The translations under genes and the position numbers were made by a program. Shown here one piece after another: positions 24,052-60,071 of a stretch of 64,000 nucleotides of DNA. A model generated the notes under the pieces. It saw nothing but the letters and a program-made list of their open reading frames with translations, was not told the DNA's origin and made no database searches. Positions within the stretch are counted from its first letter, which is position 1. Each line of letters begins with the position of its first letter. This DNA is from Escherichia coli (lineage in GTDB: Bacteria > Pseudomonadota > Gammaproteobacteria > Enterobacterales > Enterobacteriaceae), in NCBI RefSeq assembly GCF_024223415.1, contig NZ_CP100500.1. One strand, written 5' to 3'.

Positions 24052-24090
24052 AAAAACCGGCTGAAAGGCACGCTATCAGCCGGTTTTATA
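24052..24090. terminator. Bidirectional terminator between sdiA and yecF
   Basis: aaccggctga...tcagccggtt inverted repeat flanked by A/T runs. Confidence 0.6.
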
Positions 24091-32194: not shown

Positions 32195-32364
32195 GATAGT
32201 GCTCCACAAAGGTTATATTTGTTGCTGTGGCGTCACTATAATTTGTTATTTTATTATTTGCAAAAGGTAAAATATAAACTTCAATTATTAAAAATACGAA
32301 TGGGAATAAAACGCATTACCGCTATTTCTTTAATCAGCGAAGATCCCCTCGCTGATTAAAATAT

Positions 32365-33037: not shown

Positions 33038-33042
33038 CAAAA

Positions 33043-33066
33043 AACCTGCTCCGGCAGGTTTTTTTG
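33043..33066 (+). terminator. Rho-independent terminator of azuC/AzuCR
   Basis: aacctgc-tccgg-caggttttttt. Confidence 0.75.
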
Positions 33067-55089: not shown

Positions 55090-57160
55090 TCTGGCCGCGA
55101 TGCTGCGCCTGCCCGCAAACCTGAAATCGACACAATGGCAGATCCTTGCCGGACCGATTTTGATCCTGTTGATCTTGTCGATGATGGTGCTGCCACTGCC
55201 CGCATTCATACTCGACCTGTTGTTTACCTTCAATATTGCCTTGTCGATCATGGTGTTGCTGGTGGCGATGTTTACCCAGCGCACGCTTGAGTTTGCTGCG
55301 TTTCCGACCATTTTGTTGTTTACCACGCTGTTGCGTCTGGCACTTAACGTGGCTTCAACCCGTATCATTTTGATGGAAGGGCATACCGGCGCAGCGGCGG
55401 CAGGGAAGGTGGTTGAAGCGTTCGGTCACTTCCTCGTTGGTGGCAATTTCGCTATCGGTATCGTGGTGTTTGTCATTCTCGTGATCATCAACTTTATGGT
55501 CATTACCAAAGGTGCCGGGCGTATCGCAGAAGTGGGTGCGCGCTTTGTTCTCGATGGTATGCCGGGTAAGCAGATGGCGATTGACGCCGACCTTAACGCC
55601 GGATTGATTGGTGAAGATGAGGCGAAAAAACGCCGCTCCGAAGTCACTCAGGAAGCCGATTTTTACGGCTCAATGGACGGGGCAAGTAAGTTTGTCCGCG
55701 GCGATGCCATCGCCGGGATCCTCATCATGGTCATTAACGTTGTCGGCGGGTTGCTGGTCGGTGTGCTGCAACATGGCATGAGCATGGGACACGCGGCGGA
55801 AAGTTATACGCTCTTGACCATTGGTGACGGTCTGGTGGCACAAATCCCGGCGCTGGTGATTTCTACCGCCGCGGGGGTCATTGTTACGCGTGTCAGCACC
55901 GATCAGGATGTTGGCGAGCAGATGGTGAATCAGCTTTTCAGTAACCCAAGCGTTATGTTGTTAAGCGCTGCCGTGCTCGGTTTACTCGGCCTGGTGCCTG
56001 GAATGCCGAACCTGGTATTTTTGCTGTTCACTGCCGGATTGCTGGGGCTGGCCTGGTGGATCCGTGGACGCGAACAAAAAGCGCCTGCCGAACCAAAACC
56101 GGTAAAAATGGCAGAGAATAATGCCGTTGTCGAAGCGACGTGGAACGATGTACAACTGGAAGATTCTCTGGGAATGGAAGTGGGTTATCGACTGATCCCG
56201 ATGGTCGATTTCCAGCAGGATGGTGAGTTGTTGGGCCGTATACGCAGTATCCGCAAGAAATTTGCCCAGGAGATGGGCTTCCTGCCGCCGGTGGTGCACA
56301 TTCGCGACAATATGGATCTGCAACCTGCCCGCTATCGCATTTTGATGAAAGGCGTGGAGATAGGCAGTGGTGATGCTTATCCGGGGCGCTGGCTGGCGAT
56401 TAACCCTGGAACCGCTGCCGGGACGTTACCTGGTGAGGCGACCATCGATCCGGCATTTGGCCTGAATGCTATCTGGATTGAAAGTGCGCTAAAAGAACAG
56501 GCGCAGATTCAGGGGTACACCGTGGTTGAGGCCAGCACGGTGGTGGCAACGCATCTTAACCACCTCATTAGCCAGCATGCCGCAGAGCTGTTTGGTCGTC
56601 AGGAGGCGCAACAGCTGTTGGATCGCGTCGCCCAGGAGATGCCAAAGCTGACGGAAGATCTCGTTCCTGGCGTCGTCACGCTCACCACACTGCATAAAGT
56701 GCTGCAAAATCTCCTCGATGAAAAAGTACCGATTCGCGATATGCGCACCATTCTCGAAACGCTGGCGGAACATGCACCCATCCAAAGCGATCCACATGAA
56801 TTAACCGCCGTCGTGCGCGTGGCGTTGGGACGGGCGATTACCCAGCAGTGGTTTCCTGGCAAAGATGAAGTCCATGTTATTGGCCTCGATACACCGCTGG
56901 AACGTTTGTTACTACAGGCGCTGCAGGGCGGGGGCGGACTGGAGCCAGGGTTGGCGGATCGTTTACTGGCGCAAACTCAGGAAGCGCTATCCCGTCAGGA
57001 GATGTTGGGTGCGCCGCCAGTATTGTTGGTGAACCACGCGCTGCGACCATTATTGTCTCGCTTTCTGCGCCGCAGCTTGCCGCAGTTAGTGGTGCTGTCG
57101 AATCTGGAACTATCTGATAACCGACATATCCGCATGACGGCGACAATTGGCGGTAAATGA
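55082..57160 (+). CDS. flhA: Flagellar type III export gate protein FlhA (692 aa)
   Basis: ORF track 55007..57160; start MSNLAAMLRLPANLKS; overlaps flhB end. Confidence 0.95.
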   Translation: MSNLAAMLRLPANLKSTQWQILAGPILILLILSMMVLPLPAFILDLLFTFNIALSIMVLLVAMFTQRTLEFAAFPTILLFTTLLRLALNVASTRIILMEGHTGAAAAGKVVEAFGHFLVGGNFAIGIVVFVILVIINFMVITKGAGRIAEVGARFVLDGMPGKQMAIDADLNAGLIGEDEAKKRRSEVTQEADFYGSMDGASKFVRGDAIAGILIMVINVVGGLLVGVLQHGMSMGHAAESYTLLTIGDGLVAQIPALVISTAAGVIVTRVSTDQDVGEQMVNQLFSNPSVMLLSAAVLGLLGLVPGMPNLVFLLFTAGLLGLAWWIRGREQKAPAEPKPVKMAENNAVVEATWNDVQLEDSLGMEVGYRLIPMVDFQQDGELLGRIRSIRKKFAQEMGFLPPVVHIRDNMDLQPARYRILMKGVEIGSGDAYPGRWLAINPGTAAGTLPGEATIDPAFGLNAIWIESALKEQAQIQGYTVVEASTVVATHLNHLISQHAAELFGRQEAQQLLDRVAQEMPKLTEDLVPGVVTLTTLHKVLQNLLDEKVPIRDMRTILETLAEHAPIQSDPHELTAVVRVALGRAITQQWFPGKDEVHVIGLDTPLERLLLQALQGGGGLEPGLADRLLAQTQEALSRQEMLGAPPVLLVNHALRPLLSRFLRRSLPQLVVLSNLELSDNRHIRMTATIGGK

Positions 57161-57552
57161 TGAGAACCTTATTAGCAATATTATTGTTTCCGCTGCTGGT
57201 GCAAGCCGCCGGGGAGGGGATGTGGCAGGCAAGTAGTGTCGGAATTACGCTAAATCATCGCGGTGAGTCGATGTCGTCTGCGCCTCTTTCTACGCGACAA
57301 CCTGCTTCAGGATTGATGACGCTGGTAGCGTGGCGTTATCAGCTTATCGGCCCGACACCTGCAGGACTGCGGGTTCGCTTGTGTTCGCAATCTCGTTGTG
57401 TCGAATTAGAGGGGCAGAGCGGAACCACCGTGGCCTTTTCCGGTATAGCGGCAGTAGAACCGTTGCGCTTTATCTGGGAAGTGCCTGGCGGTGGGCGGTT
57501 AATTCCGTCGCTGAAAGTACAACGTAATGAAGTGATTGTGAATTATCGCTGA
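57160..57552 (+). CDS. flhE: Flagellar protein FlhE
   Basis: ORF track 57157..57552; signal peptide MRTLLAILLFPLLVQA. Confidence 0.9.
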   Translation: MRTLLAILLFPLLVQAAGEGMWQASSVGITLNHRGESMSSAPLSTRQPASGLMTLVAWRYQLIGPTPAGLRVRLCSQSRCVELEGQSGTTVAFSGIAAVEPLRFIWEVPGGGRLIPSLKVQRNEVIVNYR

Positions 57553-57610
57553 AGGACAAAAAAAATTACGCGCTCGCGAGTATGTTTAATAACTCAGTGA
57601 AAAAGGCTGG

Positions 57611-57656
57611 ATGTTTTGTTGCAATCATTTATCAGGAATAGATTGCAACAAAACAT
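57611..57656. terminator. 15-bp perfect inverted repeat (16-nt loop) between convergent flhE and yecT; likely bidirectional terminator
   Basis: atgttttgttgcaat - catttatcaggaatag - attgcaacaaaacat. Confidence 0.55.
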
Positions 57657-57672
57657 GCCAAAAATATGTGAA

Positions 57673-58161
57673 TTATCCTCTTGTCAAAGGGCTTGGATAA
57701 AAATCTTCAGAGTTACGGTATAGCTGCAACTGGCGAGTTCGCGTATTGGTCTGTATGATCATACATGATAGCCATTCTGATTCAGAATAAGGGTCACTTA
57801 AATCCTGAACATCCTCATTTGAAAGGATTAATTCACATTCTTTGTCCCTAAAATCCAGCCAGGCTCGCTGTGATTTTTTAAGCAAGTTAAGTTGTTCAGT
57901 ATCAGGTTTTTTTGCACCTGTGCGTGGCACTTGTTCTATATAACGATAAGCTTCACCATAAGCTTTATTTAATTGCGCATCGACGAGATTGTATTCTTGT
58001 CGCAGGCATGATTTGATCACGTTAATGTCAGTATCATCATCTGAATTTTTTTGCCAACAATCTTTGATGGCTGAAATGTCATGGTCGTTTACTATAACCG
58101 TATCTTCTGCGTAAGCCTGGCAAGAGATAATGCCTAATGTTAATACAAGAAATTTAAACAC
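57673..58161 (-). CDS. yecT: Exported DUF1311/LprI-like protein YecT (162 aa)
   Basis: ORF track; signal peptide. Confidence 0.75.
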   Translation of the reverse strand: MFKFLVLTLGIISCQAYAEDTVIVNDHDISAIKDCWQKNSDDDTDINVIKSCLRQEYNLVDAQLNKAYGEAYRYIEQVPRTGAKKPDTEQLNLLKKSQRAWLDFRDKECELILSNEDVQDLSDPYSESEWLSCMIIQTNTRTRQLQLYRNSEDFYPSPLTRG

Positions 58162-58282
58162 TGCGGTATTCCTTAAATTGAACCGTTATCGTTTTCCTGG
58201 GCCTGGATATTACGCTTCTGGCCTCTTACTCAACAGTGAGAAAACGATGGCATGTCCGTTTTCAGAATACATTTAGATGGCA

Positions 58283-58317
58283 ATAAAAAAGCCTGATCGG
58301 CTAACCCTGATCAGGCT
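58283..58317 (-). terminator. Rho-independent terminator of argS
   Basis: aagcctgatc...gatcaggctt stem followed on minus strand by T-run. Confidence 0.7.
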
Positions 58318-58337
58318 TCACTCTCACGAAAAATCGA

Positions 58338-60071
58338 TTACATACGCTCTACAGTCTCAATACCCAGCGTATCCAGACCCAGCTTCAGCGTCTTCGCCGT
58401 CAGTTGTGCCAGTTTTAGACGGCTGTTACGCACTTCTTCGTTTTCTGCGCTGAGGATCGGGCAGTGCTCGTAGAAGCCAGAGAACAGACCGGCCAGATCG
58501 TACAGGTAAGCACACATTACATGCGGCGTGCCTTCACGGGCAACCACGGTGAGGGTTTCTTCAAACTGCAGCAGGCGAGCTGCCAGTTGCGCTTCACGAT
58601 CTTCACGGATGATAACCGGAGCTGCAGCCAGTTGCTCTTCGTCAATTTCTGCTTTACGGAACACGGACAATACACGCGTGTATGCATACTGCATGTAAGG
58701 CGCGGTATTACCCTCAAACGCCAGCATGTTGTCCCAGTCGAAGATGTAGTCCGTGGTGCGGTTTTTGGAGAGATCCGCATATTTCACCGCACCAATACCA
58801 ACCGCGTTAGCCAGTTTTTCCAGCTCGTCGGCTGGCATATCCGGGTTCTTTTCTGCCACCAGACGGCGTGCACGTTCCAGGGCTTCATCCAGCAGATCGG
58901 CCAGTTTCACTGTACCACCCGCGCGGGTTTTGAACGGTTTGCCGTCTTTACCCAGCATCATGCCGAACATGTGGTGTTCCAGCGGTACGGATTCCGGTAC
59001 ATAGCCTGCTTTACGGACGATCGCCCATGCCTGCATCAGGTGTTGATGCTGACGGGAGTCGATGTAATACAGCACGCGATCGGCATGCAGTGTTTCATAA
59101 CGATATTTCGCACAGGCGATATCAGTGGTGGTATAGAGATAGCCGCCATCTTTCTTCTGAATGATCACGCCCATCGGTTCGCCTTCCTTGTTTTTAAACT
59201 CATCAAGGAATACGACGGTCGCCCCTTCGCTTTCTACTGCCAGACCTTTGGCTTTGAGATCCGCCACGATTCCTGGCAGCATCGGATTGTAGAGGCTTTC
59301 GCCCATCACGTCATCACGGGTCAGCGTCACGTTGAGACGATCGTAGGTGATCTGGTTCTGCGTCATGGTGATGTCGACCAGTTTGCGCCACATCTCGCGG
59401 AAATATTCGTCACCGCTTTGCAGTTTTACCACGTAGTTACGTGCACGCTCGGCAAACTCTTCATCTTCGTCGTAATGCTTTTTCGCATCGCGGTAGAAAC
59501 CTTCAAGGTCAGCCAGCTCCATTTCACCGGCGTTTTCCTGCTGCTGCTTTTCCAGCCATGCAATCAGCATACCGAACTGAGTGCCCCAGTCGCCGACGTG
59601 GTTTGCGCGAATCACTTTGTGACCGAGGAACTCCAGAGTACGCACTGCTGCGTCACCAATAATGGTAGAGCGCAGGTGACCGACGTGCATCTCTTTCGCC
59701 ACGTTTGGCGCAGAGTAGTCAACCACAATGGTCTGTTTTTCTGGCGTAGCAACACCGAGACGATCGGACGCCAGCGCCTGCTGAACATGTTCAGCCAGGA
59801 ATGCCGGATCAAGGAAAATGTTGATAAAGCCTGGACCGGCGATCTCAACTTTGCTGGCGATACCGTTAAGATCCAGATGAGTCAGCACCTGCTCTGCTAA
59901 TTGTCGCGGTGCCATACCCAGTTTTTTAGCAACTGCCATCATGCCGTTAGCCTGATAGTCGCCGAACTGAACTTTTGCTGACTGACGAACCTGCGGTTCG
60001 CAATCCGCAGGCGCGCCTGCCGCAATCATGGCCTGACGGACTTTTTCTGAGAGAAGAGCCTGAATATTCAC
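58338..60071 (-). CDS. argS: Arginine--tRNA ligase (577 aa)
   Basis: ORF track; class I HIGH-type motif in [14 protein letters not shown]. Confidence 0.95.

Follow-up and report, generated by a model that had tools for sequence, protein, structure and literature searches.

The inverted repeat between the convergent genes flhE and yecT in this stretch of Escherichia coli DNA is best read as the 3'-end hairpin of yecT, which would act as an atypical intrinsic terminator in one direction only, while on flhBAE transcripts it would form a stem-loop that lacks a U-tract, with Rho probably acting further downstream; we assign this reading, in which the perfection of the stem is a lineage-specific trait, a probability of roughly 0.55. 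The hairpin is an ordinary feature, and its analysis sharpens the picture of transcription at a single E. coli locus, which in itself matters little. What changes in that picture is that yecT appears to own an atypical one-directional terminator, and that flhBAE, cut off by the yecT segment from a presumably ancestral bidirectional terminator, is probably reliant on Rho.

The window, by which we mean the whole 64-kb stretch of DNA that was analysed, carries the repeat at exactly 57611-57656, between the two convergent stop codons of flhE and yecT (Table 1). The gene order is flhA, flhE, hairpin, yecT, yecV, and argS, with the annotation taken from identical and related E. coli records, and over 501 bp the DNA of the locus is 100% identical to that of E. 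coli strain SCU-316. A plus-strand open reading frame at 57616-57723 (35 aa, TTG start) was judged spurious. The arms of the repeat are 100% complementary, with 16 of 16 positions paired around a loop of 14 nt. A previous examination of the letters without database searches (the sequence-only reading) had described a perfect inverted repeat between flhE and yecT with a stem of 15 bp and a loop of 16 nt; its perfection is confirmed and its outer coordinates were exact, but the innermost pair, C57626-G57641, had been missed, and the real stem is 16 bp long with a 14-nt loop. The same reading had judged that the repeat surpasses the typical intrinsic terminators elsewhere in the window in length and cleanness, and this is correct because no other perfect inverted repeat with a loop of 3-40 nt in the 64 kb is as long as 57611-57656 (16 bp, against 12, 12, and 11 bp for the next longest), because the longest arm never exceeded 12 bp in 20 dinucleotide-preserving shuffles, and because the 120-nt intergenic RNA folds more stably than shuffled versions of it, both on the plus strand (z = -4.66) and on the minus strand (z = -3.96). 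The next-longest perfect inverted repeats lie at 24053-24087, 32329-32360, and 33039-33064. The core stem is low in G+C, with 5 G/C in 16 positions (31%).

Table 1. Coordinates in the window of the hairpin, its flanks, the neighbouring genes, and the polymorphic segment that contains them in part
Feature	Position	Strand	Sequence or remark
flhA	55007-57160	+	
flhE, last gene of flhBAE	57157-57552	+	stop codon 58 nt before the left arm and 52 nt before the closed hairpin
Polymorphic AT-rich segment (hairpin, yecT, yecV, argS terminator)	57549..58334		786 bp here vs 53 bp in empty-site genomes
Tail after the closed stem, yecT-sense	57597..57604	-	UUUUUCAC; adjoins the closed stem and would be the U-tract of a yecT intrinsic terminator
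3-nt bulge, then GCC	57605..57610	-	bulge CCA here, and CGA, GGA, or GAA elsewhere; GCC never varies and makes up the 3' side of the closing helix
Left arm	57611..57626	+	ATGTTTTGTTGCAATC; 16-bp perfect stem
Loop, 14 nt	57627..57640	+	ATTTATCAGGAATA on the plus strand, UAUUCCUGAUAAAU on yecT-sense RNA; the same in all E. coli alleles seen
Right arm	57641..57656	+	GATTGCAACAAAACAT; 16-bp perfect stem
GGC, 5' half of the closing 3-bp G+C helix	57657..57659	-	invariant in 8 of 8 distinct alleles
Tail after the stem, flhE-sense	57660..57667	+	AAAAAUAU; lacks a U-tract
yecT, LprI/DUF1311 family, signal peptide	57673-58161	-	stop codon 13 nt upstream of the closed hairpin
argS	58338-60071	-	

The anatomy of the hairpin is clearest on the yecT-sense (minus-strand) RNA, which reads UAUUUUU-GGC-[AUGUUUUGUUGCAAUC]-UAUUCCUGAUAAAU-[GAUUGCAACAAAACAU]-CCA-GCC-UUUUU-CAC, with the two arms in outer brackets. 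The minus-strand fold lengthens the stem, which is then followed by CC-UUUUU-CAC, and in the window allele a conformer in which GGC/GCC abuts the U-tract lies only 0.6 kcal/mol above the minimum-energy form. In the yecT orientation the window allele has a hairpin energy of -24.1 kcal/mol and the remaining alleles lie at -19 to -20 kcal/mol; over all alleles and both strands the energies range from -19 to -25 kcal/mol. The U-tract is kept in E. coli and in Escherichia sp. E1V33, and it is degraded to GUUUAACC in E. whittamii. Like a Rho-independent terminator, the structure places a stable hairpin soon after a stop codon (13 nt past that of yecT), closes it with a G+C helix, and continues with a U-rich tract, five U, immediately 3' of the stem. 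It differs from such terminators in that its stem is long (14-16 bp plus 3) and AU-rich, its loop measures 14-18 nt, and a 3-nt bulge interrupts it, where a compact G+C-rich stem with a loop of 3-8 nt is typical and this one has 5 G/C in 16 and a 14-nt loop; it also differs in having no mapped 3' end, and a simple scan for promoter and terminator consensus sequences called no terminator at the hairpin. We propose that the yecT transcript would run into this structure 13 nt past its stop codon, where an A/U-rich stem of 16 bp (most strains have 14 bp), the GGC/GCC closure, and the five U would release it, probably with only moderate efficiency given the long AU-rich stem, the large loop, and the 3-nt bulge. 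Separately, a mini-palindrome at 57569-57578 reads CGCGCTCGCG on the plus strand and CGTGCTCACG in Escherichia sp. E1V33, a symmetric double change of C-G to U-A that would keep its 3-bp stem and 4-nt loop; UAAUUUUUUUU comes next to it on the yecT-sense strand, on its 3' side, and its helix is very weak and absent from the minimum-energy fold.

On the flhE-sense (plus-strand) RNA the hairpin is as stable as on the yecT-sense RNA (-24.8 kcal/mol), but the tail after the stem holds no U-tract, and the hairpin is therefore not a canonical intrinsic terminator for flhBAE. Both flanking T-runs lie on the minus strand (TTTTTGGC...GCCTTTTT), and the plus strand reads AAAAAGGC...GCCAAAAA. As the two T-runs share one strand, the palindrome extends no further than GGC/GCC, and the symmetry of a bidirectional intrinsic terminator, in which an A-tract lies 5' and a T-tract 3' of the hairpin and both transcripts end in hairpin and U-tract, is absent. 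In the canonical bidirectional terminators of the window the palindromes take in the A and T runs, as AAAACCGGCTGA/TCAGCCGGTTTT at 24053-24087 and AAAAAACCTGC/GCAGGTTTTTT at 33039-33064. With these two, and with the terminator between flhE and argS in E. coli that lack yecT, the flhE/yecT structure shares the arrangement of one hairpin between convergent genes that is stable on both strands; unlike them, it has no A-tract/T-tract symmetry and a U-tract after the stem on one strand only. The sequence-only reading had considered a bidirectional terminator most likely, and a role in termination or at a 3' end is indeed the best reading, but the structure is terminator-like on the yecT strand alone.

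The absence of a U-tract on the flhE-sense strand can be set beside published maps of transcript ends. The curated K-12 Term-seq data for three growth conditions (Adams et al. 2021, PMC7815308) contain no 3' end at MG1655 19624xx-19626xx on either strand, in a setting where yecT is silenced by H-NS and flhE coverage is very low, and the TERMITe supplements make no mention of flhE or yecT. The same study reports a Rho termination region at MG1655 1962401 on the minus strand, antisense to yecT (PMC7815308). The hairpin corresponds to MG1655 1962476-1962521, so that, going in the flhE direction, the Rho peak comes 75 nt after it, near 57731 in the window. This region is weak (800-nt windows, about 30 reads; PMC7815308), and with bicyclomycin (+BCM) the coverage is 119 downstream and 33 upstream of it (PMC7815308). 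A Rho region beyond the hairpin fits flhBAE transcripts that pass the hairpin and are then stopped by Rho; the downstream excess in +BCM might just as well come from antisense transcription that starts within the AT-rich yecT segment and is suppressed by Rho, and not from read-through of flhE. Transcripts whose termination depends on Rho have been found to end at stable stem-loops that have no U-tract and are shortly followed by rut sites (Dar and Sorek 2018, PMC6061677). The flhE-sense structure resembles these protective 3' stem-loops in being stable, U-less, and shortly upstream of a reported Rho region, but it differs from them in that no steady-state 3' end is reported at its base and the RNA downstream of it is not C-rich (39 C and 37 G in 200 nt). 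For flhBAE transcripts, we suggest that the U-less hairpin would most likely be no terminator by itself and at most a pause or a barrier to 3'-exonucleases, and that Rho would probably stop transcription at a later point, within antisense yecT.

To see how the locus is distributed, we searched 5,426 complete E. coli genomes and found the whole of it in 3,546. In about one third of the matching genomes (~1,745 of 5,291) the match ends 11 nt past the flhE stop codon. The segment that is present in some genomes and absent from others has a G+C content of 36-40%, and its flanks have 50-60%. In yecT-less genomes flhE is followed by AAAAAGCCGATGTC-tgccat-GACATCGGCTTTT and then by argS, an arrangement that constitutes a canonical bidirectional terminator common to flhE and argS. 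Given that flhE abuts a canonical terminator where yecT is absent, the yecT segment parts flhE from its proper terminator and carries one of its own, oriented for yecT. In strain EC96 (L015), an IS1 end, GGTAATGACTCCAACTTATTGATAGTG, starts 5 nt past the U5 tract and replaces the flhE side of the locus.

The perfect stem is one of several allelic states, which we describe on the yecT-sense strand by the top of the left arm and the start of the right arm. The E. coli C type (...AAGC / AATT...) has a 14-bp stem and no other change. The K-12 type shares these letters and the 14-bp stem and carries one A->G change in the right arm, which gives a U-G wobble on yecT-sense RNA and a C-A mismatch on flhE-sense RNA. 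The O157 type (...AAGC / GATT...) is otherwise unchanged and has 14 bp plus one C-G pair across the mismatch, and the window type (...AATC / GATT...), again with no other change, has the 16-bp perfect stem. Counted as exact 85-mers, the K-12 type occurs in 2,450 genomes, the C type in 391, and the window type in 182, which makes the perfect stem a minority allele (182 of ~3,500 locus-carrying genomes); the change in the 2,450 genomes of the K-12 type is the sole polymorphism within the 14-bp core. The outgroups E. whittamii and Escherichia sp. E1V33 both have AAGC with CATT or AATT and a 14-bp stem, and since this holds for both of them, the 14-bp stem is ancestral and the perfect 16 bp derived. 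Perfection of the stem is thus a lineage-specific derived state and neither a functional requirement nor a hallmark, and a "perfect" repeat should not be equated with a "functionally special" one.

The polarity of these alleles also bears on how the perfect stem arose. The A->G step to the O157 type adds a C-G pair, and the G->T step to the window type adds a U-A pair (57625-57626 and 57641-57642; alleles in L010-L020), so each of the two changes makes a pair that is templated by the opposite arm, as template-switch mutation of a quasipalindrome would do; two base changes would each have added a pair at the top of the ancestral 14-bp stem. The perfecting of quasipalindromes by template switching is documented in E. 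coli (PMC7202029, PMC5941160). As in quasipalindromes corrected in this manner (Ripley model; Lovett laboratory; Lavi et al. 2018), an imperfect ancestral repeat has been perfected here and each change matches the opposite arm; the difference is that there are only two changes, apparently in separate steps with the O157 type as intermediate, and not one templated event. Because there are just two events, with a chance probability of ~1 in 9, an origin of the perfect stem in replication template switching is only suggestive, and chance or selection for stem stability may instead lie behind the two pair-making changes. The allele series from 14 bp through 14+1 to 16 bp perfect is in any case a tidy natural example of imperfect palindromes becoming perfect.

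Across 8 distinct alleles from three Escherichia species, GGC/GCC and 13 of the 16 stem pairs do not vary. The hairpin of E. whittamii (L005 3550-3600) differs at 3 of 46 positions and has lost the U5 tract, and the spacer towards flhE is heavily diverged there, with a deletion of ~10 nt. Given that E. whittamii keeps the hairpin and has lost the U-tract, the hairpin has possibly been retained for a role other than termination, or for none. Conservation alone proves little because all of the sequences are very close (mean column identity 96%), and the covariation analysis is uninformative for lack of divergence, with 0 compensatory pairs in 8 alleles and a shuffle control equal to the observed value. 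A genome scan with YecT for conservation outside Escherichia returned only E. whittamii and Escherichia sp. E1V33, and no comparable hairpin lies downstream of the ~60%-identical YecT homologues, two of which are in T6SS clusters (L007 and L008) and one beside flagellar genes (L009).

We also compared the repeat with other classes of element. An Rfam search at permissive E-values found no family at its gathering threshold: the top match, to 23S-methyl (E = 0.88), scored 23.6 bits where 50 are required, and all others were chance matches to miRNA hairpins. In up to 3,523 E. coli genomes the hairpin was found at a single site each, and all 39 matches in metagenomes have the yecT/flhE surroundings too; since it is single-copy and its context is constant, it is not a REP/BIME, ERIC, or MITE-type repeat. 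Neither strand of 57540-57690 contains the R'' (RYYYAAC) and R' (GTTRRRY) motifs of an integron attC site. In the flhE-yecT intergenic region a simple scan found no promoter-like sites, and a search of 57600-57670 for the FlhD4C2 box in both spacings gave no match at <=3 mismatches, a threshold at which the pattern is barely above chance. An operator is unlikely because there is no promoter-like site, because the repeat lies between stop codons with half-site centres 30 bp apart, and because there is no FlhD4C2 match; the suggestion of the sequence-only reading that a dimeric regulator might bind here is, for these same reasons, unsupported.

Several other explanations can be weighed against this evidence. 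That flhBAE and yecT are both stopped at this hairpin by a canonical bidirectional intrinsic terminator is what convergent genes, a single strong hairpin between them, and equal stability on the two strands would lead one to expect, but we give the idea little credence, given the flhE-sense tail that lacks a U-tract, the placement of both T-runs on the yecT-sense strand, and the true examples in the window and at the empty site, which hold their A/T tracts inside the palindrome. Furthermore, the majority K-12 allele weakens the flhE-sense stem through its C-A mismatch and not the yecT-sense stem, and the reported Rho region lies beyond the hairpin in the flhE direction. That Rho region would instead suit a main role on the flhBAE mRNA, in which the hairpin is a U-less protective stem-loop after downstream Rho termination and any effect on the usually silent yecT is incidental. 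We hold this to be unlikely. In its favour, yecT is repressed by H-NS and requires activation by BglJ-RcsB (PMC3950696), whereas the flhBAE operon is expressed; the hairpin has the traits reported by Dar and Sorek 2018 (PMC6061677), with the Rho region 75 nt downstream; and E. whittamii keeps the hairpin without the yecT-side U-tract. Against it, the foot of the hairpin does not coincide with any steady-state 3' end in the curated K-12 Term-seq data, the commonest allele is mismatched on exactly the flhE-sense strand, the downstream RNA is not rich in C, and the Rho data are low in coverage and ambiguous.

The hairpin could also be a relic that has no current function, brought in with a horizontally acquired yecT segment, kept by short divergence, and perfected by template switching. 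The closeness of the sequences (96% mean column identity, no compensatory changes), the status of the perfect form as a minority derived allele together with documented template-switch correction, and the AT-rich and dispensable nature of the yecT segment all agree with this, yet we regard it as rather improbable, as the E. whittamii hairpin is far better conserved than the adjacent spacer, and the position, orientation, closing GC helix, and U5 tract suit a yecT terminator too well. Still harder to sustain is a function that depends on symmetry or on opposing polymerases, either as an operator for a dimeric regulator or as a member of the class of collision-type bidirectional terminators reportedly described by Ju et al. 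in 2019. The half-sites are perfectly symmetric in the window and the collision model calls for a stem-loop between convergent genes, but both versions are very unlikely: to the missing promoter-like site in the intergenic region, the position between two stops, the 30 bp between half-site centres, and the missing FlhD4C2 box at <=3 mismatches may be added that the majority allele breaks the DNA symmetry, and head-on collisions would be rare because yecT is normally silent. A one-directional, atypical terminator of yecT remains our preferred account of the hairpin.

Homologues of YecT (LprI/DUF1311, signal peptide) that are ~60% identical lie inside T6SS clusters (L007 and L008, 3001-3486), and DUF1311 proteins are known as T6SS immunity proteins (PMC12135965, PMC12981562); by analogy, and because of these two observations, E. 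coli yecT looks like an orphan T6SS immunity gene. One could go further and suppose that promoter, yecT, and hairpin together make up a mobile "orphan immunity gene" cassette of which the hairpin is the working end; it would have served as a structured DNA site when the cassette entered between flhE and the flhE/argS terminator, or would have been selected as an insulator that protects yecT against antisense read-through from the flagellar operon. If true, this would account for why the segment is present in some genomes and absent from others and for why the stem has drifted to a perfect match, but we consider it barely credible. As for the homologues themselves, the one in L008 is preceded by genes for VgrG, for a protein with a weak match to the Pesticin domain, and for a second LprI, and a PAAR gene is next; the one in L007 is downstream of a CHAP-domain gene, with a PAAR gene next and an IcmF/TssM gene further downstream.
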